From an uncultured Candidatus Saccharibacteria bacterium (GTDB lineage: Bacteria; Patescibacteriota; Doudnabacteria; UBA920): 64,000 bases of DNA. Every line of letters begins with the position of its first letter. Position 1 is the first letter of the stretch. The stretch is from positions 105,128 through 169,127 of the forward strand of contig CAYYQK010000002.1 in assembly GCA_964473815.1 (NCBI GenBank), given 5' to 3'. The notes under the pieces were generated by a model. That model was not told the DNA's origin and searched no databases. It saw only the letters and a program-made list of their open reading frames with translations. Shown here in pieces: positions 474 to 13,092 of this stretch. The position numbers and the translations under genes are program-made.

Positions 474-1082
474 TTGCATTATTTATTTATGACTAAATTT
501 TTAAAAGATATAACTTTTGATGAAATGTTTCGAATTTGGATCAATAACGAAATTGGTCAGGTCGAAAATCGTGATGTGTTGCCCGTGGCTAAAGCAAAAG
601 GTTTTAGTTCAGTTGCTGAGTGGCGGTTAACAACTGCGCTGCGTTTAGGGTTAGATAAATTAAATTGGCGTTTGGAAGAAATTGAAAATCCAGGAGAAGT
701 ATTGCCAAATGTGATTGTTGGTCCGTACCGCGGATGGTCGTTTCAAAAAGGAACTGAATTTTTTCAAAATGATTTAACTATCTCTTTTGCTCAAGCTTTG
801 GAAATTCCGGAGTTCTTTGAATTTTGTAATCATCATGATCGCGTTGTGCCATTGTCAGAAAATTTTCCATTACCAACTACAATTATTTTGGCACGCAAAC
901 CAGATGGTAAATTAATTCACATAGAAGGTGGTCATCGTATTTGCGCGGTGGCGTATGCTCAGAAAATTGGTAAACCTATTTTGTTCGAAGATCAACCACC
1001 AATAACCGCAGCAATTGCAGATGTAACAGAGGAAGACATTGCGCGCTTTATCGAAAAAGCCAAATCAGGTACGCAGAAATAA
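474..1082 (+). CDS. hypothetical protein, possible ParB/sulfiredoxin-like nuclease fold (motif IEGGHRICAV)
   Basis: 202-aa ORF; DGxHR-like motif resembles ParB N-terminal/Srx domain; followed by a rho-independent terminator. Confidence 0.4.
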   Translation: MHYLFMTKFLKDITFDEMFRIWINNEIGQVENRDVLPVAKAKGFSSVAEWRLTTALRLGLDKLNWRLEEIENPGEVLPNVIVGPYRGWSFQKGTEFFQNDLTISFAQALEIPEFFEFCNHHDRVVPLSENFPLPTTIILARKPDGKLIHIEGGHRICAVAYAQKIGKPILFEDQPPITAAIADVTEEDIARFIEKAKSGTQK

Positions 1083-1092
1083 TTTGCATAAC

Positions 1093-1122
1093 AAAAAACT
1101 CTCCTTTAGGGAGAGTTTTTTG
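1093..1122 (+). terminator. rho-independent terminator (aactctcc-ttta-gggagagtt + T-run)
   Basis: perfect 8-9 bp GC-containing stem followed by TTTTTT directly after stop of 474..1082. Confidence 0.7.
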
Positions 1123-1127
1123 ATGGA

Positions 1128-1152
1128 GCTCCATAGTACAGGACGTTAGAAC
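1128..1152. repeat. 25-bp direct repeat copy 1 (gctccatagtacaggacgttagaac)
   Basis: identical 25-mer recurs at 4611-4635; lies at the GC-content drop into the AT-rich region. Confidence 0.85.
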
Positions 1153-1175
1153 ATCTATTCTAGGAAGCAACTCAA

Positions 1176-1946
1176 TTACTTCCTTACAATTAGCAAAGAG
1201 TTAAAGTATGTTAATTCGTTATTTGTTGAAAATTTTAAAATTTCAGGCTTACATTGTACGTAAGTCTTAAGATCCATTTCAAACCATAACTTTACTGCTT
1301 CGCATAATTCATTGGGAGTATTAGCCCGAACGGTACATTCGATTTCTATTTCCTTAATATTACTATTGGATTTATCTAGAATATTAATCAGTTTGTCGTA
1401 CGAGTACGCGTAGTTTCTTTTAAAGGCCAAATCTTTAATACGTTTGTAGTCACCTTTGGGTTTATGAGTAACGAATAAAATCACTCCATCCTTATTAAGT
1501 AAAGAAAGCATCTTATCTATTGCATCGGTTTTATTCTGAAAATAGTAAAGTACATGACAAGCTAGGATCACATCATACTTTTGACTAGAGTTCCATTTCT
1601 CAAAGTCTTCGTTTACTATAGCCACATTCTTTTTATTGTAGGTATGTGCGTAATTAGAACTTTTTTCCAAGAGAGTTATATTTTTAACACTTGTTGGAAA
1701 TAGATGTGAACTAGTTAATGTATCTAACCCAGCCCCTATATTAAGAATTGATTTTGGTTGTATCTTATTAAGCAAGTTTAATATTTCACTCTCAACCTTT
1801 ACCTTTTCATTAGAGTGCTTAACAAATTGCTCAAATAATTTTTCAGGGAACTCAAATAGTATATTCATCTTATTTTGTAATAGAGAACTAAAGATAGTGA
1901 TTAAATCTGTCCTTTTTAGTTCTGATATAGTTGTGGTTATATTCAT
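1176..1946 (-). CDS. class I SAM-dependent methyltransferase (start may be internal Met at 1868, avoiding overlap with upstream gene)
   Basis: motif LNIGAGLDTL (SAM-binding motif I-like) and downstream acidic/hydrophobic motif II (YDVILACHVLYY). Confidence 0.55.
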   Translation of the reverse strand: MNITTTISELKRTDLITIFSSLLQNKMNILFEFPEKLFEQFVKHSNEKVKVESEILNLLNKIQPKSILNIGAGLDTLTSSHLFPTSVKNITLLEKSSNYAHTYNKKNVAIVNEDFEKWNSSQKYDVILACHVLYYFQNKTDAIDKMLSLLNKDGVILFVTHKPKGDYKRIKDLAFKRNYAYSYDKLINILDKSNSNIKEIEIECTVRANTPNELCEAVKLWFEMDLKTYVQCKPEILKFSTNNELTYFNSLLIVRK

Positions 1947-2460
1947 TGCTTTCGGTGATTAAATTAATTCTCTCAGTTACATTAATATCTAGGTTTTTTA
2001 TTGCAGTTACTTTGTCTGGATTATTTGTAAGTAGCTTAATGTTACATATTCCTAAGCTATTCAATATTGTCTTTACCTGTGAATACTCTCGAGCGTCTGG
2101 TAAATGCCCTAACATAACATTCGCATCATATGTGTCATACCCATTATCTTGTAATTGATAAGCTTTAACTTTTTCGTACAGGCCAATCCCTCTTCCCTCT
2201 TGTCTTAGATAAATGAATATTCCGTTTTGGGAGTTATTGATTAGTTTAAGAGCGAGTTCTTTTTGAGGACCGCAATCACATCGCAAACTCTTGAAGTTGT
2301 CGCCCGTAATACATTCACTATGAATTCTTACGATTACGGATTGTGTCTTATCTAGATTGGGGGTTTGAAGTACCAATGGTTCTTTACCATCTTTATCTTT
2401 CCAAACACTCATTACGAAATGACCGTATTTGGTCGGCAATATTGTAGATACAGATTCCAT
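1888..2460 (-). CDS. GTP cyclohydrolase II (RibA-like) stand-alone
   Basis: RIHSECITGDNFKSLRCDCGPQ zinc-binding Cys motif and RQEGRGIGL...KVKAYQLQDNGYDTYDAN signature typical of GCH II. Confidence 0.8.
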   Translation of the reverse strand: MESVSTILPTKYGHFVMSVWKDKDGKEPLVLQTPNLDKTQSVIVRIHSECITGDNFKSLRCDCGPQKELALKLINNSQNGIFIYLRQEGRGIGLYEKVKAYQLQDNGYDTYDANVMLGHLPDAREYSQVKTILNSLGICNIKLLTNNPDKVTAIKNLDINVTERINLITESNEYNHNYIRTKKDRFNHYL

Positions 2461-2461
2461 A

Positions 2462-3133
2462 TTATTTTTTCTTCCATTGCAGAATCATGTAGCCAGGATA
2501 GGTGTCTACGATTTTTTCTGCGGCTGGATCAAACTGCTCCTCAAATAACTCAAGGGTGAAGTGAGTCATCATAAAGGTCGAAAAGTATTCTTTAAGAGTA
2601 TGAGTCGGCTCTTTGAATGTAAGTAACCCATCAAAGCATACTGAATCTACTACTTCCTTTTTGAAGTAGTCTTTCCCTATTTTCTTCTTTTCGTACAGTT
2701 GTCTGATTGGATGCGCTACTAGAAAAGTAAAAGTCCCACCAGGTTTAAGTATCCGATAAACTTCCTTAAAAATTGGTTCTAATTCTTCGGCAGTCTGAAG
2801 CGCATATTTAGAGAATACGAAGTCGAAAGTACTGTCTTGATGAGGCAAAGAATCAAACACTCCGTATTTAAATTTAATACCCGAATATTTTTTTGATGCT
2901 ATATCAAGGAGTTCTTTTGAAGCATCTATACCATAAACAAGATCCGCACCTTGATCTTTGAAGAACTTACAGTCACTACCGTCACCACAACCAATATCTA
3001 ATACAACTCCTCCCTTAATAGTAGGAACTAGATTGCGATAAACTCTACGATTGTACTGCGCACCTTTTTCATAAACAGACTCAAAAGTGTCTGCGATCGA
3101 ATCGTATTGATGACTTAATTGATTTGAATTCAT
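2462..3133 (-). CDS. class I SAM-dependent methyltransferase (UbiE/COQ5-like fold)
   Basis: VLDIGCGDG motif I, acidic residue after beta2 (DAS), RILKPGG motif. Confidence 0.75.
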   Translation of the reverse strand: MNSNQLSHQYDSIADTFESVYEKGAQYNRRVYRNLVPTIKGGVVLDIGCGDGSDCKFFKDQGADLVYGIDASKELLDIASKKYSGIKFKYGVFDSLPHQDSTFDFVFSKYALQTAEELEPIFKEVYRILKPGGTFTFLVAHPIRQLYEKKKIGKDYFKKEVVDSVCFDGLLTFKEPTHTLKEYFSTFMMTHFTLELFEEQFDPAAEKIVDTYPGYMILQWKKK

Positions 3134-3144
3134 ATTGTAGCGAG

Positions 3145-3546
3145 TTAAAAATGTTTCTTAAAATCCAAAGAGGTATTCGCAATTTCATATGCCATATAAT
3201 CCATCTCTTTCCCTTCGTCGCAGATGAATTCATGTTTAACACCCTTTGGCACTATAACTACATCCCCTTGTTCTACGGGAATGTTGCCTTCTTCTGTTTG
3301 AAGAAAAGCCTTTCCTTTAATGATTACGCCGACAACGTGGGATATGTGGTGGTGCATTGGTTCGTTGTCATAACCATTAATGTGTACATAGTTAGCTGAT
3401 ACCTCGGTATTATGAGTGGAATCGAATAGGTCATTGATTCGTACAGGTGGAAGGGAAATAAATGCTGAGTTTCCATCTTTTATAAGTGATGATGAACTAG
3501 GTAAAACAGTACATTTATTTAGTTGTAGTAAATTAGCAATATTCAT
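3145..3546 (-). CDS. cupin-domain protein
   Basis: two-His/Glu cupin motifs HHHISHVVGVI...G...E...PKGVKHEF. Confidence 0.55.
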   Translation of the reverse strand: MNIANLLQLNKCTVLPSSSSLIKDGNSAFISLPPVRINDLFDSTHNTEVSANYVHINGYDNEPMHHHISHVVGVIIKGKAFLQTEEGNIPVEQGDVVIVPKGVKHEFICDEGKEMDYMAYEIANTSLDFKKHF

Positions 3547-3652
3547 AAGTTATAGAATTAATATTCTACGGACGCATCATACTATAAATTCTTGACTTAA
3601 TCATATTTTTGTGGTATTATTACAATATAGTGAACTTAAAGTGCAATAATAT

Positions 3653-4480
3653 ATGTTATTTTCTCCCAACGAATCAATAGAAGATGCCACAATTCGCCTT
3701 GTTTCTATGGGAAAAACGTCCCCTACTGATATCTTCGAAAGTCTTCAAAAAGAAGGCAATTCTATATCAAAAAGAGGGGTGTATAAAGCTATTCATTATT
3801 TGTTAGAGCACACAATTCTTGTAAAGAGTGGTAAAAAACTCTCGATCAGCCAAGAATGGGTAGATTCTGTAACTAGGGCATTAAAGAATAACTTTACTAT
3901 GCCTGTTCTAGCCGACGGAGAATCTGCTACATATAAGTACAAATCCTTAGTAAACCTTGATGCGTATTGGAAGCATCTAACTAAATCTCTCAAAGACCAG
4001 TACAGTACCTACCCTGTATTTTTGTACAGTCCTTATAATATTTGGCTACATTTAGCAGATAGAACTGAAAGTCAATTGGAGTATTATAGATCGTTTGAAA
4101 AGGAGCGAAGATATGGGTACCTCGTACTAGGCAATAGATCAGAATTAGATATGGAGTTTAAAAAAACACTGCAAAGTGAATTTTTGCAGATAGATACGTG
4201 GGACAAGCCTCCTTTCAAGGAAACAGAATACTACACTATAATTGATGACATTATCGTAACTACTAAGGTAGGACCGAAATTAACAAAGATTATAGCTAGT
4301 TTTTATAAAACCACTCCTACAATAGAAAGTAAGTCTAAGTTAAATCGTATTCTAGATATTACAGACATATCTAAGATTAAAATTGAAAGAAATAAAAAGA
4401 AAGCGAAATATCTTCGAAAAAGACTCTCTAAGAATTTCTACATACCAAAAGAGATTAAAGAACAGTTTGGTTTGTTCTAA
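3653..4480 (+). CDS. hypothetical protein
   Basis: 275-aa ORF inside AT-rich island, no recognisable motif. Confidence 0.4.
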   Translation: MLFSPNESIEDATIRLVSMGKTSPTDIFESLQKEGNSISKRGVYKAIHYLLEHTILVKSGKKLSISQEWVDSVTRALKNNFTMPVLADGESATYKYKSLVNLDAYWKHLTKSLKDQYSTYPVFLYSPYNIWLHLADRTESQLEYYRSFEKERRYGYLVLGNRSELDMEFKKTLQSEFLQIDTWDKPPFKETEYYTIIDDIIVTTKVGPKLTKIIASFYKTTPTIESKSKLNRILDITDISKIKIERNKKKAKYLRKRLSKNFYIPKEIKEQFGLF

Positions 4481-4610
4481 AATAAATAAAGCACCTGTAT
4501 AAGGTGTTTTATTATTGTTACCCCCTAATGAAATTCAATCGAATCAATTTGGAGTAGATTTTACAGCATCTTTGTGATTTTCCTAAGAAATTTGAAGGGT
4601 TCAAAATAGT

Positions 4611-4635
4611 GCTCCATAGTACAGGACGTTAGAAC
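4611..4635. repeat. 25-bp direct repeat copy 2 (gctccatagtacaggacgttagaac)
   Basis: identical to 1128-1152. Confidence 0.85.
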
Positions 4636-4658
4636 TAGTCTAGTAACTGTTTTATGAG

Positions 4659-5369
4659 TTACGGATTAGTGTCAGATTGAGCTACAAAATGTGGATTTTG
4701 AAACCTAATACTACACTCTGGGCAAATATAAGAAGTAACTGTTGTACTTATGTTTCTCGGGTATTTACAGGAAGGGCAAGGTAAATACTCATTAGAATGA
4801 GGTGTTTGTTTTATATGTTCTTCCCAAGGAAGTATAAAATCTTTTACATAATCTATATCACCTCTTTTGTATCTATGAAACATCGTCTTAAGTACGGCCT
4901 CGCATGCCATCTCTGTAATTCTCTTTTCGTCTTCTGTAAATGCTTCGTATTCGTCTAATGGTTCATATTGCTTAGTATTCTGTATATGTATACGATCTCG
5001 TAACTTTTTAACTCTTTCTAATAAGTCATAAAATCTTTCATCTGGAGCTGAGAAAATATTGTGTTTGCGAGAGTTATCTAAATACTTCTGAAACGCATTT
5101 ATTTCTTTCCCTCTAATCTCGTTAATAATATCTGTGGCTATATTTCTTACTCCTTCAATTGTGAATTTATTTACTCGGTAGTAAAAATCATGAAGCACTG
5201 CTTCAATAATTGAGCTTATAAATATAATTATAGGTTTACATAAATAACGTTTTTCGTTTGTTGAGGCTCTATCGTATTGACGGTAAAGATAGATAAGTAT
5301 TTTAGTATTGTGGTTAATGTTATCACCGACTTTGTATGAACCGATGAAATTAGATTTTACTGTAAACAT
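4659..5369 (-). CDS. hypothetical protein with C-terminal zinc-ribbon (CPSCKY...CPEC)
   Basis: 236-aa ORF; CxxC...CxxC at C-terminus; start abuts stop of upstream SRAP gene (operon). Confidence 0.45.
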   Translation of the reverse strand: MFTVKSNFIGSYKVGDNINHNTKILIYLYRQYDRASTNEKRYLCKPIIIFISSIIEAVLHDFYYRVNKFTIEGVRNIATDIINEIRGKEINAFQKYLDNSRKHNIFSAPDERFYDLLERVKKLRDRIHIQNTKQYEPLDEYEAFTEDEKRITEMACEAVLKTMFHRYKRGDIDYVKDFILPWEEHIKQTPHSNEYLPCPSCKYPRNISTTVTSYICPECSIRFQNPHFVAQSDTNP

Positions 5370-6038
5370 TTATTTGCTATTCTGGGCTGGTAACAATATG
5401 TCAGGGTGATCGTTACTAGGTTTATTTACTAAAGTAGAAATAGGGTAAGAAACCATCTCAGTTGCAGGATAAGGCTGTAATAAATTAATTGCTTCCTCTG
5501 CTTCTATGTCAGGATTCATCCAATCTTTCTCACTAGTAGGTGTTAATATCACGGGCATTCTGTTGTGAACATTCTCAACTACCTCGTTAGGTGTAGTAGT
5601 AATGATAACACTGTGGGGTACTTTGTTTCCTTGAGCGTCTGTTTCGTATTGCCATAAACCTGCAAAGGCAAAAGGTTCCCTATCCTTAAGTTCAAATCTG
5701 TAAGGAACCTTGAGTTTCGAATCTGGTTGTTTTTGCCATTCATAGAATCCATCAGCAAGAATTAGACAACGTTGTTCAGCAATCATCTTTTTCCAAGTTG
5801 GTTTTACCATGCTGTCATTACGGGCATTTATAAAGAACATCTTACCAGTCTTGTCGTAAAATGGATGAATCCCCCATTGCGTATAAACTATCTCGTTCGG
5901 ATCTGTATTCAAGATGGTAGGTATAGGCTGGGAAGGTCGGACATTATATCTGGGATCAACTGGGCTTTCGTTATAGCCTGCGTTGAATCTTTGAGATAAG
6001 TCTCTAAATGGATGAATTACTGAAAATGCTCCGCACAT
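5370..6038 (-). CDS. SOS-response associated peptidase (SRAP/YedK/HMCES family)
   Basis: N-terminal MCGAF (catalytic Cys2), length and conserved W/H pattern typical of SRAP. Confidence 0.7.
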   Translation of the reverse strand: MCGAFSVIHPFRDLSQRFNAGYNESPVDPRYNVRPSQPIPTILNTDPNEIVYTQWGIHPFYDKTGKMFFINARNDSMVKPTWKKMIAEQRCLILADGFYEWQKQPDSKLKVPYRFELKDREPFAFAGLWQYETDAQGNKVPHSVIITTTPNEVVENVHNRMPVILTPTSEKDWMNPDIEAEEAINLLQPYPATEMVSYPISTLVNKPSNDHPDILLPAQNSK

Positions 6039-6402
6039 GATGAATTTGTTAAGTTATGTAAAGTTTTGTGTGGATAACTGATTGATAAAATATAAAATAT
6101 GGCTTATTTGTGAGGAGAGACCATCTTTTATACCTGCCAAATCACTCTGATATACTGAAGTTAGTAGAACTTTACAACCTGTATTCCACTTTTTGACCAT
6201 CTTTTGGAGTACCGGGCTAAGGGCATCCCTTTTAGGGACTTGTTCTACGCCCGACTATCAATTATTTCTGAGTGGAATCGGAAATGGTTGATTGGCCCGG
6301 AACTCTAGCAGGTGGTTTTATTTTACCACTTGTTGGGAAAAACCAATGGGGCGCCCCTGTAGCAGTCGACTGATTGGATTATTAATCCGAAAGGAAGCAA
6401 TA

Positions 6403-6558
6403 ATGCCTATCCCCGTTGGAATGATCTGTCGCCCGTACATTACGGTAGACGGTCAGAAGATTTGGGCTAAGGATTACGGTAAAAAAGCCTTTTGTTTCTT
6501 CCCTTCTCTTAAGAAGGGGAAAAAGAAAAAGCCTGAAGCCGTAAAACTTCAAGCCTAA
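6403..6558 (+). CDS. small basic ORF (51 aa, Lys-rich C-terminus) with SD and downstream terminator
   Basis: AGGAAG 6 nt upstream of ATG at 6403; followed by hairpin+T-run at ~6575-6615; no homology recognised. Confidence 0.2.
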   Translation: MPIPVGMICRPYITVDGQKIWAKDYGKKAFCFFPSLKKGKKKKPEAVKLQA

Positions 6559-6574
6559 CTTCACCTTATAAAAC

Positions 6575-6615
6575 ACTCGTTTGGGTACCCATTCGGGTGT
6601 TTTATGTTTTAGGAG
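6575..6615 (+). terminator. rho-independent terminator (aaacactcg...cgggtgttt + T-run)
   Basis: 9-bp stem with G-U, loop containing gggtaccc palindrome, followed by TTTTATGTTTT. Confidence 0.5.
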
Positions 6616-6765
6616 TATAACCCCCAAATCACAGTCTCTAGATTCTGGGTTTAGGGATTATTGAACAATACTATCTTATATAAGAAATATAGTCAATTCA
6701 TATCATTTGTACATGAAATGTATATCTATTATACCATATTCTTATCCACAACCTTTAACACCCTT

Positions 6766-7857
6766 TTAGGTACCTGATTTAAGACGATTGTCTTCTTTGC
6801 ATAACATTTGGCAATTTTCTGATGTAGTTTTACCACCCTCATGCCATGGTTTGATATGATCTGCTTCCATCTCTTCTATCTCAAAATGTTTCTTGCATTT
6901 TGGACAAACTCCTTTTTGCCTTTCGTATGCTTCACGTTTCATCTTATCGTTGAAAGCTCTAATAGAAAGAAGTCTTTCTTTTCTGGTTAACACATAAGGA
7001 TATATACCAGACTTCTTTGTTACATCTTCATCCTGCATAAGTTTAGATACTTCTTCTTCTAATTCTTTAGGATTCAATGTTGTCTCTTTAAATTCATTGT
7101 ACAATTCACCCCAGTTCACTCCAGCCATTTCTTTACGGTAGTTGGTGAAAGTGCTTCTAGACCAAGATATAACTTTCTGGAAATATTCCCAAAGTTCTTT
7201 AGCATCTTTGTCATGTTGATGGGATGCCATGTATCCAGCTATGTCGCCATTATTAATCCAACTCAATGCTGTTTCTAAATAGTCTTGTCTTATAGGAGAT
7301 CCATGTAACAAAGAACCGCCATCATTAGCTAACAGATATGCTGCACAATTTGATTTACTAAACTTTAATTTTGCATCTGATAACCAAGGTCCTGTATAGA
7401 CAGCATTACGTAATTCTTGTTCAGTTAATCGTTCTCCTGCAATATTGATAGTTCTGAACCAGTTCAATCTTTCTATGTCTGTTCCTTCGCAAAAGTAAAC
7501 CATTAATTCATAGTTCAGAATTTGCTCTTGCTCCTCCTTGGTAAGATTATGGAAATATCGATCATTTAAAGAAAAGTCTCCTGTCACATACTGACCAATA
7601 CTTATAGTTCGCTGTTGTCCGTCCAATACTTCGAAGTTTCCATCTTCTCGAACCATCCAATACATAACATTCAATGGAAAGTCGTGAGTTATAGTGTTGA
7701 TTACTGCATCTCGTTGCTGGTCTTTATACACAAACTCTCTTTGATATTTTGGACGAACATCTAGTTTACCAGCATATGCAACTACACCTTCTTCTGCACT
7801 ATCTTTGTAACCTTCAGTAATTTCTCGTATAGAAATTTTATTTAGTTCAATTTTCAT
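6766..7857 (-). CDS. DUF262 (ParB-like nuclease, DGQQR motif) fused to C-terminal HNH endonuclease; GmrSD-related putative restriction endonuclease
   Basis: VLDGQQRTISI motif of DUF262; C-terminal CPKC...ADHIKPWHEGG...N...LC HNH motif; start overlaps stop of upstream MTase (ATGA). Confidence 0.7.
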   Translation of the reverse strand: MKIELNKISIREITEGYKDSAEEGVVAYAGKLDVRPKYQREFVYKDQQRDAVINTITHDFPLNVMYWMVREDGNFEVLDGQQRTISIGQYVTGDFSLNDRYFHNLTKEEQEQILNYELMVYFCEGTDIERLNWFRTINIAGERLTEQELRNAVYTGPWLSDAKLKFSKSNCAAYLLANDGGSLLHGSPIRQDYLETALSWINNGDIAGYMASHQHDKDAKELWEYFQKVISWSRSTFTNYRKEMAGVNWGELYNEFKETTLNPKELEEEVSKLMQDEDVTKKSGIYPYVLTRKERLLSIRAFNDKMKREAYERQKGVCPKCKKHFEIEEMEADHIKPWHEGGKTTSENCQMLCKEDNRLKSGT

Positions 7858-8963
7858 TAGGATTCCTTATTTCTAATTAAAAGTCTAGCATACACAGCTT
7901 TAAAGCCTTCTGGTGTTTTTAGTACACTCCTTGCGTTCAAATCATTATATTTAGGGTGATCATCTATTGTATATTTTTTCTTACGCATCCCTGATGTATT
8001 TTGTCTATCGGTAATACCAAGTATTTCAAATTGTTCAGGATTGTACTTATCTAAGAAAGTAATAGGTACGCCCATTGTATCTTTGTAATCTTTAGGAATA
8101 TCAGAAGTTTTACTTACTTCAATTGCATCATAGTTGTCATAGTGTGGATACTCTTCCGGAGAATAATTTTTGTATAAGACTAAATCCGTATGACGTTCTG
8201 TGTAATCTAGATTTGTAAACCAACGAACACCTTTCACTCGAATAAATTTATTACCCTCACTATCCACTCTTGTCCCGGCTGCATTGAGAGGGTAATCATC
8301 AGGAACTCTGAACTCTCTATCACCACTATGAATACTTTGCCCTAACCACATTTTGTTATGTTGGACTAGAGGAAATACTTCTTTGTAAGTTATAGCATTG
8401 ATGTTTCCAAGTACTAGGAACTTTTTATTGTGTTCGACTAGCTGTGCTATAAATTCTCGGAATAAAGAGAATGGTGGATTCGTAACAACAATATCTGATT
8501 CCTTTAACAGATTAATACATTCGTCGCTACGAAAATCGCCGCTACCTTTTAATGGTGTTGCTGAGTTTTTGTCATGCTGAAGTAGAAACTTAACATCATC
8601 TAAATTAATAGCACCATCCCCGTCTGTATCAGGTACAGCATTGATCTCTAACTTAAATGGTTCTAATCCTGTTGGCTTCAGTCCCTCCATCTCAAATAAG
8701 GGTAATTGTCTTCCCACAATTGGAGACTTCATGTAGCTAGTGCTGATAAGTTTCTTCAAACCTAAAGCATTAAAGTTTGCAGCAAAGTATTTAAAAAAAT
8801 TACTTTCAAAAGGGTCATCACAGTTACAATACACCACCTTATCCCTAAATTGTTCTTTATAATGTTTAAGCTCTTTTTCAATATCAACTAGTTGAGTATA
8901 AAACTCATCTTTTTTAGCTTGTCCTGCTTGGTTTAAATTTGTGTTTAAGGGAGTATTAGGCAT
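7857..8963 (-). CDS. N6-adenine DNA methyltransferase
   Basis: catalytic motif IV NPPF (IVVTNPPFS), N-terminal DEFYTQ motif; SAM-binding fold. Confidence 0.75.
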   Translation of the reverse strand: MPNTPLNTNLNQAGQAKKDEFYTQLVDIEKELKHYKEQFRDKVVYCNCDDPFESNFFKYFAANFNALGLKKLISTSYMKSPIVGRQLPLFEMEGLKPTGLEPFKLEINAVPDTDGDGAINLDDVKFLLQHDKNSATPLKGSGDFRSDECINLLKESDIVVTNPPFSLFREFIAQLVEHNKKFLVLGNINAITYKEVFPLVQHNKMWLGQSIHSGDREFRVPDDYPLNAAGTRVDSEGNKFIRVKGVRWFTNLDYTERHTDLVLYKNYSPEEYPHYDNYDAIEVSKTSDIPKDYKDTMGVPITFLDKYNPEQFEILGITDRQNTSGMRKKKYTIDDHPKYNDLNARSVLKTPEGFKAVYARLLIRNKES

Positions 8964-9267
8964 TAAAGTTGACTTAACTAAAGTAATTATAGACTTATCC
9001 GAGGAAAAAGAGAATATGAGTGTGTATAATGAAAGGTATACTATCGTACACCTATGAAACTGATAATATTTTTCTTCGTAAAACTACCTCGACATTCCCC
9101 TTGTCCTGACCATTGGCTAATGCTACCCCCCACTGCTCAAAATTACGGAACCATTTGTAAAAAGTGCCTTTGGAAGACACTACCAACAGGAGGAAATATG
9201 AGACCAGTAAAGTTATTTAACAGGTATTGGAATCATTAAAAAATTGGTATAATACCAACACAACACA

Positions 9268-9672
9268 TTGCCTAACCCCTACTTTGTAGGATATGGCATT
9301 AAATCCGATCAAGATATAGAACCTCTCGTCAGGGTCCTTGATCGGTCGTATCTGGAAACGGATATGTTGATCCGAAAGGGTCAAACTTGGCGGGGGGCTT
9401 TTTGTTCCCCAGTCATACAATTAAAACCGATCAAGGAAATGTCTAAATTGAATACTAAAAAAGTAATAGGTTTCCTATTACGACCTTTGTCATTATTTAT
9501 AGTATTGGTGCTACTGTACTGGGGGTTTACTTCTTCTGGAGATGTTAAGGAAATAGCGTTGAACTTCATTATTATTGCTATGTCCATAATGGTTGTCGGA
9601 ATTATATTTAATGATGTTTGGGATAGTGATGAAGTGCCTAATTGGATTCGTAAGTATTTTAGAAAGAGATAA
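9268..9672 (+). CDS. hypothetical small membrane protein
   Basis: 134-aa ORF with TM helices (LLRPLSLFIVLVLLYWGF; IIIAMSIMVVGIIF). Confidence 0.3.
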   Translation: MPNPYFVGYGIKSDQDIEPLVRVLDRSYLETDMLIRKGQTWRGAFCSPVIQLKPIKEMSKLNTKKVIGFLLRPLSLFIVLVLLYWGFTSSGDVKEIALNFIIIAMSIMVVGIIFNDVWDSDEVPNWIRKYFRKR

Positions 9673-10235
9673 TGTCAGCAGAATTAATAACATTTTTCCA
9701 TAACTCCGACGAATTACGTTCGGAGTTTTCTCATAAGGATTCAAATAGACCATGTTTCTATTGGTTTGCTGACAGATTCCATAGTCATACTGGTTATCTA
9801 AAAAAAGATAAGTATTTCTATATGTTTGTAAAAGACCCAATTAAAGAATCAATCACATTAATACCTCGTAATAATGAGGACCATAGTTTTCATGCTTTGT
9901 ACAACGACTTCCTTTTCTTTAAACACAATACAGATTATCAGGAATATTTAGAGCCTCCTATTTTAATGTCGTATGATAGAATCGTTCCTGATTTGATTGC
10001 AGAATACTCAGAAGAAACAAATGAGTATAAGATTGTGAAACCAGATATCTTTAAACATATGCGATTCAAGTTATATGACGATTCATATAAACATCAATGG
10101 GCTAAAGGTCCAAAATTTACAGATATTCAAGTATTGAATAAATCGCTCCCTTTACTAGCAAATTCATTGCCGCTAACTGATCCTAAAATCAGAAATGGAA
10201 AGTATATTTTCAAAAACTGGTTAGGTGCATATTAG
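9672..10235 (+). CDS. hypothetical protein
   Basis: 187-aa ORF in island, start overlaps preceding ORF. Confidence 0.4.
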   Translation: MSAELITFFHNSDELRSEFSHKDSNRPCFYWFADRFHSHTGYLKKDKYFYMFVKDPIKESITLIPRNNEDHSFHALYNDFLFFKHNTDYQEYLEPPILMSYDRIVPDLIAEYSEETNEYKIVKPDIFKHMRFKLYDDSYKHQWAKGPKFTDIQVLNKSLPLLANSLPLTDPKIRNGKYIFKNWLGAY

Positions 10236-10371
10236 TGCATATTTTGAAAAACTAAGATTACGTCACTTTAGGTCGTAATTAAATACCTTTGATAATTAGG
10301 TTAAACGCTATGTATTTCGCGCAAAACTAGCTCAAATTCATGCGTTTATATCGGAAACCAAGAGTTATATA

Positions 10372-10400
10372 TTGACGCACAGAAAACTCTAAAGTACAAT
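10372..10400 (+). promoter_or_regulatory. sigma70-like promoter (TTGACG-17-TACAAT)
   Basis: near-consensus -35/-10 with 17-bp spacer upstream of 10511 ORF. Confidence 0.4.
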
Positions 10401-10510
10401 GCTTTTACTGGATAAAGAAAATTAGAGAAGAAACCTCTCGTTTCGGCAACTAATGCCCCAGATAAAAAACTCGTGCTAACCATGGCACCATAATTAAGTT
10501 TTTTATCGGG

Positions 10511-10882
10511 GTGTTGTTTTTTACCAACACACTCGATGTTGGTTTTATTATGCCTAGAATAAAGTTTGGTTATGATTCAAATTACATTAAAGTGTATGGA
10601 CGAGCTCAATCGCATTTCAATTTAAGACCCATAGAAGGTTTACTTTTGGGTTTGGTAGAAAGTATGTCTTCTCAAAAAGGTTATTGCTATGCAACCAAGG
10701 AAACTTTGGCAGGAATATTGAATGTAAATACAAGCACTGTCTATTACACAATGAACAAGTTAATTAGAAAAGGTTTATTGATTTCCAAACCAGTAGGATT
10801 CAGTAAAGCGCAATTAATGTGTACAGATGAATGGTATGACTTTATAGGAGAACTTAGACAAAGTTTTTCGCCAGATGATTAA
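10511..10882 (+). CDS. winged-helix DNA-binding protein (MarR/PadR-like), possible island regulator; start may be 10550
   Basis: motif ETLAGILNVNTSTVYYTMNKLIRKGLL resembles wHTH recognition helix. Confidence 0.4.
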   Translation: MLFFTNTLDVGFIMPRIKFGYDSNYIKVYGRAQSHFNLRPIEGLLLGLVESMSSQKGYCYATKETLAGILNVNTSTVYYTMNKLIRKGLLISKPVGFSKAQLMCTDEWYDFIGELRQSFSPDD

Positions 10883-11407
10883 TGTCAATTTGTGGTTCTA
10901 GATCCATTTAGCCTCCGAATTTCAGAATGGCCCTATTAAATTCAGAGTCCTAAGACTATGAAATTAAAAGTAAAAATACTCTTAAATTCAGAGCTAATAT
11001 ATATAATCATATTTATAAATCATATTTAAAGATTAATACCCATATTTTGTAAAATATACAAAATATGGGAAACAGCACAAGATAATGAATCAAATAAATG
11101 AAAAACAAATACAAGAATTTATAGATCTATATAAGTTAAAGTATGGAGTAACTATAAGTCGTGAAGAAGCTATCATTCAATCAAGAAAATTATTAGATCT
11201 TGTTAAGCTTGTTTATAAACCAATAAAAAAAGATTCTGATAAAGAGTAGTTGTCCCCCGTGCCAAGAGGAATCGTATCAGTGATAATGTAATTAACAACT
11301 ATCACGTGCCTAGCTAACAATTTGTTTTGATAATTCCTTTATTGGAATAGTCTTTATCTGAAACATTGGGTTCGGATAGTTGTTGAGACTATTCCTTTTT
11401 TGTATTT

Positions 11408-13081
11408 ATGAAAGTATCTAATCCAAAACTTAGATATGTGGTTTATGCACGTAAATCCACTGATTCCGAAGATAGACAGGTTCAATCAGTAGACGACCAA
11501 TTAAGAGAGCTAGAACCAATTATTACCCAAAACAGCCTAAATGTAGTTAGGTATTTTGAGGAATCTAAGTCTGCCAAAAGACGTGGAAGACCAATGTTTA
11601 ATGAAATGATGGATATGATTCAAAATGGTAAAGCTGATGGTATTATTTGTTGGAAACCAAATCGGTTATCCCGTAATGCATATGACGGAGGACTGATACA
11701 AGGAATGCTTACTGATAATATTATTCAATCCATAGTTACTCCATCTAAAGAGCATTTGCCCCAAGATAACGTTATGTTATTAACTGTTGAATTAGGCATG
11801 GCTAATCAGTTTAGTTTGGATTTGGGGCGTGATGTTAGCCGTGGAATGCAGAGTAAAGCAAATAAAGGGTGGTTACCTGAGAAAGCACCACTAGGATACC
11901 TTAACGATCCGCTAGGTTTGAAAGGTGAAAAGAAAATATTTATTGATGAGGAAAGATTCCCATTAGTTAGAAAAATGTGGGACTTGATGTTAACAGGAAA
12001 CTATACTGTTAAGCAATTAAGAGATCTTTCCCATAATGAATGGGGTTTGAAGACAAGGGCTAGTAGGAATCTATCTAGCAAGATGCTAAGTCTGAGCGGA
12101 GCGTATAGAATATTCACAAATACATTTTATTATGGCGAGTATTCATATAAAGGAGAGGTAATTCAAGGTAAACATCAACCCATGGTAACTAAGGAAGAAT
12201 TTGATCGAGTCCAAAAGTTACTTGGTAGAGCTGGTAAACCGAGACCTAAATATAAACGATTGCCATTTAATGGTGTGATTAGATGTGGAGAATGTGGATC
12301 CATGATTACTTGTGATGAGAAAGTGAAACGTTCAAAACAACCAAATGTACAGCCAAAGCATTATTTATATCACAGATGTACAGGTAAGAGTCATGATTCT
12401 TGTTTTCAAGAACCAATCACCTATCAGGATCTAGCTAATCAAATTACTGGTTATCTTGGTAGTATTACTATATCTCAAGAACTATTAGAATGGTCATTAA
12501 AAATATTGCGTCAAAATAATCAAATAGAAGACACTAATCGCTCCATAATAATAAAAAACCTAAAAAAAGATTTGGAGTCCGTTTCAGAAAAGAATAAGAA
12601 TTTGATTGATCTCTTTCTTTCAGGAAGTAATAAAGATCGAAGTATGCTCACTGAAGAAGAATATATCAATCAGAAGAATACTTTTACAGCTGAGAAATCT
12701 AGAATTGAAGGTGAATTAAGAAAAATTGAAACTAATGACGGTGGTTTACTTGAGTTAACTGAGAAGACATTTGAGTTTGCTACTTATGCTAGATCTCATT
12801 TCCAAAATGGCGACTATGAAACACAAACTCGTATATTACTGAATCTTGGGCAGAAAATAGTCTTAAAAGATAAAAAGCTAGTTATAGAATTACAGAAACC
12901 TTACTCAATTATAAAAAATGGACTAGAAAAAATGAGTTCAATTATGATATCGGTCGAACAAGAAGAACGCCTTATACCTAAAAGGAAAAACACTCCTTTA
13001 GAGAGTGTTTATTCCATGTGGAGCGGCCAAGGGGAATCGAACCCCTATCCCTTCCTTGGCAAGGAAGAGTTCTACCATTGA
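11408..13081 (+). CDS. large serine recombinase (resolvase/invertase catalytic domain + recombinase domain + zinc ribbon)
   Basis: N-terminal YVVYARKSTDSEDRQ...SVDDQ catalytic-Ser motif; CGECGS...HRCTG zinc ribbon; coiled-coil C-terminus; last ~63 nt overlap tRNA-Gly on opposite strand. Confidence 0.85.
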   Translation: MKVSNPKLRYVVYARKSTDSEDRQVQSVDDQLRELEPIITQNSLNVVRYFEESKSAKRRGRPMFNEMMDMIQNGKADGIICWKPNRLSRNAYDGGLIQGMLTDNIIQSIVTPSKEHLPQDNVMLLTVELGMANQFSLDLGRDVSRGMQSKANKGWLPEKAPLGYLNDPLGLKGEKKIFIDEERFPLVRKMWDLMLTGNYTVKQLRDLSHNEWGLKTRASRNLSSKMLSLSGAYRIFTNTFYYGEYSYKGEVIQGKHQPMVTKEEFDRVQKLLGRAGKPRPKYKRLPFNGVIRCGECGSMITCDEKVKRSKQPNVQPKHYLYHRCTGKSHDSCFQEPITYQDLANQITGYLGSITISQELLEWSLKILRQNNQIEDTNRSIIIKNLKKDLESVSEKNKNLIDLFLSGSNKDRSMLTEEEYINQKNTFTAEKSRIEGELRKIETNDGGLLELTEKTFEFATYARSHFQNGDYETQTRILLNLGQKIVLKDKKLVIELQKPYSIIKNGLEKMSSIMISVEQEERLIPKRKNTPLESVYSMWSGQGESNPYPFLGKEEFYH

Positions 13082-13092
13082 ACCATGGCCGC
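13019..13092 (-). tRNA. tRNA-Gly (GCC)
   Basis: cloverleaf read by eye: acceptor GCGGCCA/TGGCCGC, anticodon loop TTGCCAA, T-loop GGTTCGATTCC, encoded CCA. Confidence 0.85.

Follow-up and report, generated by a model that had tools for sequence, protein, structure and literature searches.

The M-R gene pair and the question that it raises

In a 64,000-nucleotide (nt) stretch of DNA from an uncultured Candidatus Saccharibacteria bacterium (contig CAYYQK010000002.1, positions 105,128 to 169,127; the whole stretch is called the window below), the gene of an EcoRI-family DNA methyltransferase (MTase), M, overlaps the gene of a nuclease, R, in which a DUF262 domain is followed by a helical region and an HNH domain. 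The question that this locus raises is what kind of system the two proteins form and, if they form a restriction-modification (R-M) system, which of them reads the DNA. We consider it very probable that the pair is a working R-M system. A preliminary description of this DNA had called the pair unconventional, and this it is, albeit for another reason, which is what is new here: the comparison of related cassettes revealed that M swaps variable modules while R stays constant. We propose, with about even confidence in the mechanism as a whole, a mobile R-M cassette in which R would be a nucleoside triphosphate (NTP)-gated HNH nuclease directed by M.

The main features of the pair are as follows.

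7857..8963, minus strand: M, EcoRI-family (gamma-class) N6-adenine DNA methyltransferase, 368 amino acids (aa) (Pfam PF13651 and PADLOC MTase_II)
8469..8480, minus strand: catalytic motif IV NPPF, residues 162-165 of M (translation; invariant in 69 partner MTases)
7855..7859, minus strand: TAATG stop/start overlap, M to R (sequence)
6766..7857, minus strand: R, DUF262 (ParB/Srx-like NTPase fold), helical middle and HNH nuclease, 363 aa (Pfam, PADLOC, AlphaFold)
7396..7758, minus strand: DUF262/GmrSD_N domain of R, residues 34-154, with the YQRE and DGQQR nucleotide-pocket motifs (PF03235, E=4e-16)
7609..7623, minus strand: DGQQR, residues 79-83 of R (translation)
6775..6906, minus strand: HNH (beta-beta-alpha-metal) nuclease domain of R, residues 318-361 (PF01844, E=2.4e-12)

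The pair had been described as a coupled MTase and DUF262-HNH nuclease with NPPF and DGQQR motifs and a stop/start overlap at 7857; the two open reading frames (ORFs) are real, both on the minus strand, and all of these elements are present. On the coding strand the junction reads TCC TAATG AAA, with M's TAA and R's ATG sharing base 7857, and a comparable overlap of 1-4 nt or a close abutment was found in Aeromonas, Macrococcoides, Leuconostoc, a Flavobacterium phage and streptococci. Pfam PF13651 (EcoRI_methylase) matches residues 9-366 of M over profile positions 1-345 (E=2e-148, 494.8 bits against a cutoff of 26.4), and the PADLOC model MTase_II (PDLC03297) matches with E=2.8e-124. The overall identity to M.EcoRI is 52%, the reference being the E. 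coli plasmid gene that adjoins the one annotated "type-2 restriction enzyme EcoRI". TNPPFSLF (residues 161-168 of M), DEFYTQ, CNCDDP and GDFRS are kept across 69 partner MTases from related loci.

The AlphaFold model of R (pLDDT 82) has three domains: DUF262, an all-helical middle (residues ca. 160-300, highly conserved) and HNH. In an alignment of 45 homologues, with identity down to 41%, the invariant residues are P36, Y38, Q39, R40 and D79-R83 in the DUF262 part and C318, C321, D333, H334, N348, C353 and N357 in the HNH part. The CxxC...H...N...CxxC pattern attributed to the nuclease beforehand stands as far as the HNH and the first zinc knuckle are concerned. The second knuckle is CxxxC (C349...C353), and its C349 is not kept in the Firmicutes subfamily. 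The catalytic His and Asn, whose absence had been named as a possible sign of an inactive nuclease, are both in place, and neither M nor R looks decayed, with intact ORFs and every invariant residue present.

The HNH domain of R aligns with the Gme HNH nickase 4h9d, and weak, per-domain fold matches were obtained to HNH nickase, McrA, ParB, Noc, sulfiredoxin, DndI and SspE. There is also a weak profile match to BrxU (7p9k), located exactly at the two DUF262 motifs. In BrxU, an enzyme of the GmrSD family, the DUF262 domain is a nucleotide-binding fold, and NTP or deoxy-NTP stimulates cleavage (review PMC12707154). Since the DUF262 pocket of R aligns with the nucleotide-binding motifs of BrxU, its sequence suggests a nucleotide-gated HNH nuclease, and the invariance of the pocket motif likewise suggests that cleavage would not be NTP-free. 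By Pfam search R has GmrSD_N and HNH (PF01844) only: no DUF1524 (PF07510) domain was matched, and a superfamily 2 (SF2) helicase-like ATPase with a PD-(D/E)XK nuclease was not found. That R might be a DndB- or SspE-like component was also considered and rejected, as it matches no Dnd or Ssp model of PADLOC and no dnd or ssp genes lie in the neighbourhood.

The idea that the architecture is uncatalogued found no support. Both proteins have full-length PADLOC models, labelled Type II restriction endonuclease (REase) and MTase, that of R (REase_II, PDLC03418) covering residues 1-361 over model positions 1-370 of 372 (E=1.2e-142), and the architecture is already catalogued as Type II by defence databases. 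NCBI labels the R family "DUF262 domain-containing protein", "HNH endonuclease" or "HNH endonuclease family protein". CviAII of PBCV-1, which we take to have an M-then-R TAATG overlap, was tried as a characterised prototype and dropped. Orlowski and Bujnicki file it under "unknown superfamily" and not under HNH (PMC2441816), and it was dropped because an HNH motif as canonical as that of R should have been detected. The HNH class of this 2008 structural census of Type II enzymes has no obvious prototype of R (PMC2441816).

Module exchange in M beside a constant R

We compared 69 complete M-R pairs (2346 pairwise comparisons). Mean pairwise identity was 0.66 for R against 0.58 for M, with R the more conserved partner in 89% of the comparisons, which is unusual for Type II systems. 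Conservation along R is uniform (0.66-0.85 per 20-residue block), with no hypervariable block, and M has three blocks of low conservation, V1, V2 and V3:

8544..8732, minus strand: variable insertion V1 of M, residues 78-140, holding a DTDGDGAINLDD loop (conservation 0.44-0.51, length varies)
8214..8342, minus strand: variable module V2 of M, residues 208-250, the putative main specificity element (conservation 0.42-0.57 against 0.8-0.88 in the flanks)
7890..8012, minus strand: variable module V3 of M, residues 318-358 (conservation 0.16-0.33)

V2 falls into 19 discrete types of differing lengths, nine of them with several members. Members of one type share a V2 identity of 0.78, and those of different types 0.24. 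The identity of R hardly follows this division (0.70 within types against 0.66 between them). Among four loci from different Bacteroidales (L066, L072, L075 and L079), and likewise between L070 and L076, R is 96-98% identical and the M core 68-94%, with V2 at only 10-39%. The DNA of these near-identical cassettes is 97-100% identical except in V2 and/or V3, where identity falls abruptly to 53-72%. Reassortment of the two modules is independent: L075 combines the L079 V2 with the L072 V3.

The comparison with M.EcoRI is along similar lines. The M of Lactococcus lactis is 70% identical to M.EcoRI in V2 and 47% in the rest of the protein, and for the window M the figures are 32% in V2 and 54% in the rest. 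An EcoRI-like V2 held at 70% on a 47% core indicates, at the sequence level, that V2 is under its own selection and evolves independently of the M core. In the alignment, Tyr204 of M.EcoRI, which can be photo-crosslinked to DNA, lies inside V2, and His235, which has an effect on bending and base flipping, comes just after it.

As to V1, that of the window M carries DTDGDGAINLDDV, which resembles an EF-hand or dockerin-type calcium-binding loop, and similar loops are found in L070, in L076 and in Firmicutes MTases (DEDGSGTVNIEDV).

Which protein reads the site?

In the mechanism that we propose, M would mark host DNA at a site set by the exchangeable V2 and V3 modules, and this methylation would protect it from R, the restriction subunit, which would be made by translational coupling from M's mRNA and would cut unmodified DNA. 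Because R lacks a variable, specificity-like segment, we suppose that it reads no sequence itself and that it would depend for its targeting on M, being recruited or licensed by M on an unmethylated site much as Mod recruits Res in Type III systems or M2S recruits HsdR in Type I. The DUF262 domain would gate cutting through NTP binding or hydrolysis. Exchange of modules beside a restriction subunit without specificity of its own is known from Type I (HsdS) and Type III systems (target recognition domain alleles of Mod) and is not the pattern of orthodox Type II systems. If M and R were two independent readers, swapping modules beside an unchanged R would expose the chromosome, so that R is most likely directed by M.

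The orthodox alternative, which we regard as rather unlikely, is a Type IIP system in which R has a fixed site of its own (GAATTC-like or with an AATT core) read by the helical domain, M methylates this site independently, and the variation in V1-V3 is neutral, broadens the flanks or evades anti-restriction. The strong conservation of R fits such a fixed specificity, as do the REase_II label that PADLOC gives to R and the ca. 50% identity of M to M.EcoRI. However, the replacement of a module beside an R that is 96-98% identical would be lethal unless every module covered one and the same site, and that 19 V2 types of differing length should all do so is unparsimonious. The selection that V2 appears to experience by itself also argues against it, and so does the higher conservation of R than of M.

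Palindrome avoidance was used in an attempt to infer the recognition site. GAATTC is the most depleted 6-bp palindrome in the window, with 14 occurrences against 23.9 expected (observed/expected, O/E, 0.59; a count made with no control set), and the most depleted one in the 16 hosts with the V2 type of the window, with 85 against 121.9 (O/E 0.70, z=-3.3), a value that is marginal after multiple testing. This weak depletion speaks for the Type IIP reading. In the pooled loci (83, 1.25 Mb, again with no control set) GAATTC is among the most depleted 6-mers, but other palindromes are equally depleted. The V2 of the window is not of the EcoRI type, and GAATTC should not be assumed for this system.

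A pair of similar layout and gene sizes has been reported in Prevotella intermedia ATCC 25611F, where an MTase 51% identical to M.EcoRI (M.Pin25611FORF1345P) is followed by a 1104-bp R gene (Pin25611FORF1345P) (PMC5608340). GAATTC was predicted for it, no GAATTC methylation was seen, and the system was called inactive (PMC5608340). The prediction, derived from REBASE, favours a Type IIP enzyme and the missing methylation weighs against one, with the limit for both that homology of this R to the window R is not confirmed. The P. intermedia system may be active on another motif, if the V2 of its MTase is of a non-EcoRI type. A second catalogued case is a "DUF262 domain-containing protein" of Bifidobacterium animalis, entered in REBASE as a putative Type II REase (Ban8145ORF124P, motif RTCAGG; PMC13091528). 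The kinship of either protein with the window R could not be confirmed, and both REBASE names bear the suffix "P".

A natural M-R fusion (P0268, metagenomic, 688 aa) bears on the role of M. Its M-like half has TFPSF in place of TNPPF and CNAGDG in place of CNCDDP, and its DUF262-HNH half keeps DGQQR and the HNH residues intact. Judged from these motifs, the fusion is consistent with an M-like domain that would serve R as a targeting module. There are also loci in which M is broken and R intact (L035, L039 and L090), and one with the reverse (L059), but such pseudogene counts comprise few cases and are confounded by frameshift errors in metagenome-assembled genomes (MAGs). One of them, L090, is on a plasmid of Chryseobacterium taklimakanense H4753 (1568-2382), where the MTase is frameshifted at residue 266/267, R is intact and annotated, and the MTase is missing from the PLSDB gene table; the MAG loci L035 and L039 are similar. 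The L090 frameshift could be a sequencing error, or M may have been lost without harm, and such a loss should not be possible in an orthodox Type II system.

Several points weigh against an R directed by M. The PADLOC and REBASE labels are those of a Type II REase, which implies independent recognition. V2 and V3 are putative specificity setters, and it may be that R has one fixed site of which every variant methylates a superset. A fixed sequence could be read by the conserved helical middle of R. The counts of site avoidance show other palindromes to be depleted as much as GAATTC, the P0268 fusion is one metagenomic sequence only, and loci where M is broken but R intact are no commoner than sequencing errors would yield, with the reverse case occurring as well. 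Finally, our literature search, made in a limited library and thus liable to have missed one, found no cleavage report for a DUF262-HNH nuclease with an EcoRI-family MTase.

At present M.EcoRI serves as the model from which the specificity of these systems is predicted. Should M direct the nuclease, predictions of GAATTC-type motifs would be unreliable for them, and calls of inactivity such as that of P. intermedia would need a second look.

Linkage and spread of the cassette

The R family is large. A word-indexed search gave at least 8000 close homologues among the matches listed, the best 120 of which have 78-84% identity, and the nearest relatives among these matches are in Patescibacteria MAGs. 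An exhaustive search of cluster representatives (E<=1e-30) resolved the family into 517 clusters at 50% identity, mostly of 360-410 aa and under strong purifying selection. The carriers span many bacterial phyla and include Patescibacteria/Saccharibacteria, Bacteroidales, Bacteroidota, Prevotella disiens, Planctomycetota and Omnitrophota and, among archaea, Methanobacterium and Pacearchaeota. Plasmids of Aeromonas, Macrococcoides, Variovorax, Gordonia and lactobacilli carry it, as do a Flavobacterium phage and gut phage contigs. A Firmicutes subfamily is found in Lactococcus lactis, Streptococcus suis, S. parasanguinis, Enterococcus faecium and E. faecalis, and Lactiplantibacillus plantarum likewise hosts the cassette. 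It is a mobile cassette that moves among plasmids, phages and islands, it is among the most widely spread R-M modules that we sampled, and cultured carriers exist, Macrococcoides canis Epi0082 and Prevotella disiens JCM 6334 among them.

Linkage was studied in 82 loci, 80 from genomes and 2 from plasmids. An EcoRI-family MTase lies beside R in all 77 with flanking DNA: in 76 it precedes R on the same strand, and in one (L080) it follows R. The remaining five, without an MTase, all end at a contig edge. Five further loci from plasmids, phages and Firmicutes have the M-R order unchanged. An obligate partner, a fixed gene order and a stop/start overlap are what one typically finds in a classical R-M module, and not with a solitary Type IV enzyme. 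The earlier suggestion of an R-M system with a ParB-like HNH protein as its restriction component agrees with this R-M-like behaviour (M beside R in 77/77), its claim to be uncatalogued being the part without support.

The same data bear on the other suggestion made beforehand, a methylation-sensing defence of the GmrSD type. Here R, as a GmrSD/BrxU-like Type IV enzyme, would attack foreign modified DNA, and M would merely travel along with a task of its own, for instance in epigenetic regulation or in shielding against other systems. DUF262 and a His-Me nuclease are indeed the parts list of GmrSD, and if R ignored the sites of M, it would be natural for R to stay constant and for M to vary. 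Nevertheless, we find this highly improbable: Type IV enzymes are normally solitary, and here the MTase linkage is obligate, with a near-fixed order and coupling, the nuclease is PF01844 instead of DUF1524, R is half the size of GmrSD, and the PADLOC Type IV model (mREase_IV) reaches only E=0.003 against 1e-142 for REase_II.

The mobility of the cassette invites a further explanation: it might be mainly a selfish module for addiction or mobility, or might have decayed, and play no part in defending this host today. It moves between plasmids, phages and islands, in the window it sits on an integrated low-GC (guanine plus cytosine) island near a serine recombinase, and the similarly laid-out P. 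intermedia pair was called inactive (PMC5608340). A decayed system should not, however, have both ORFs intact with every invariant residue, nor be under strong purifying selection across 517 clusters, and addiction and defence can coexist in R-M systems. We consider a system without a defence role very improbable.

Some loci depart from the simple two-gene layout. In ca. 12 of the 77 (L010, L013, L015, L019, L033, L035, L037, L039, L042, L043, L057 and L059) an extra gene stands exactly between M and R. Those inserted encode T5orf172/MUG113 (GIY-YIG-like), DUF2130 and RhuM proteins or small proteins of several unrelated kinds, which have a hydrophobic N-terminal segment and match nothing in Pfam. 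Accessory or selfish genes seem to insert preferentially at the M-R junction. At L058 (7977-10004) two tandem EcoRI-family MTase genes, of 325 aa each, precede a single R gene, which may represent a system with two specificities or a module exchange caught midway. In E. faecium (L097/L098, 3930-6170) a gene for an OLD-family ATPase-TOPRIM protein and one for a UvrD-like helicase (a Gabija-like pair) come directly after M-R, so that the cassette sits in a defence island there.

Genomic setting in the window

The accessory island on which the pair had been placed was borne out. It extends from ca. 1,000 to 13,092 of the window, with a GC of 0.32-0.38 against 0.39-0.46 beyond, and ends in a serine recombinase gene that overlaps a tRNA-Gly. 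No controller (C) protein gene adjoins the M-R operon in the window. Other features of the island and of the surroundings of the operon are listed here.

9034..9053, minus strand: inverted repeat with an 8-bp stem, in the divergent intergenic region ca. 70 nt before the start of M; may be an operator or a terminator
6529..6556, minus strand: terminator-like hairpin followed by a T-run, ca. 210 nt downstream of the R stop
5370-6038: SRAP (SOS-response peptidase) gene
10511-10882: HTH_36 gene
11408-13081: large serine recombinase, right end of the island; its 3' end overlaps tRNA-Gly
13019-13092: tRNA-Gly, the first of a four-tRNA cluster

A 30-nt direct repeat (1123-1152 and 4606-4635, 93% identical) bounds a block of 3.4 kb. 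The block encodes a SAM-methyltransferase-like protein (Pfam) and, judged by eye, a second methyltransferase-like ORF, a GTP cyclohydrolase II-like protein and a cupin-like protein. The repeats may be the ends of a mobile unit nested within the island.

Comparison with known systems

The M-R pair resembles several known systems in part. With the EcoRI R-M system it shares the MTase family (PF13651, 52% identity, NPPF and the core motifs) and the organization as a two-gene mobile cassette. On the other hand, the 363-aa R is not related to R.EcoRI (277 aa, annotated as a Type II enzyme), and on the EcoRI plasmid R precedes M, whereas in the window M comes first and overlaps R.

KpnI, Hpy99I, PacI, NlaIII and SphI are small enzymes that read their own sites, and we know of no N-terminal ParB/DUF262 domain in any of them. 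These HNH Type II REases are like R in using a beta-beta-alpha-metal HNH domain for restriction (PMC2441816).

GmrSD, BrxU and SspE have, like R, an N-terminal DUF262 domain with the QRE and DGQQR motifs and a C-terminal His-Me-finger nuclease, and regulation by NTP is probable in R as well. They differ from it in having a DUF1524 nuclease and ca. 590-770 aa, against a Zn-knuckle HNH of the PF01844 family and ca. 360 aa in R. Besides, R has a cognate MTase, and its predicted target is unmodified and not modified DNA. If our proposal is true, the ParB/Srx NTPase fold would here be the motor or switch of a classical R-M system, blocked by modification instead of dependent on it, and the family would provide a link between GmrSD-type Type IV enzymes and the evolution of R-M systems.

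The Mod/Res pairs of Type III also have the MTase gene first and the restriction gene second, often overlapping. They resemble the M-R pair, too, in the swappable modules of the MTase, in a conserved restriction subunit without a specificity element of its own and in the combination of an NTPase with a nuclease, the NTPase of R being predicted. Nevertheless, Mod is a beta-class MTase, while M is gamma-class and of the EcoRI family, and Res consists of an SF2 helicase-like ATPase and a PD-(D/E)XK nuclease, where R has a ParB/Srx-fold domain and an HNH; R would also depend on M by our proposal. We suggest tentatively, and less firmly than the mechanism itself, that the cassette represents a distinct and so far unrecognised class of R-M systems, in which a ParB/Srx NTP switch joined to an HNH nuclease without specificity of its own is guided by a module-shuffling gamma MTase, in effect a helicase-free analogue of Type III that has been filed as Type II. 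Sliding or clamping such as that of the ParB CTPases may occur in it. If true, this would be a compact two-protein system of ca. 730 aa with reprogrammable specificity, and if M-guided, NTP-gated restriction holds, the family would merit a class of its own.

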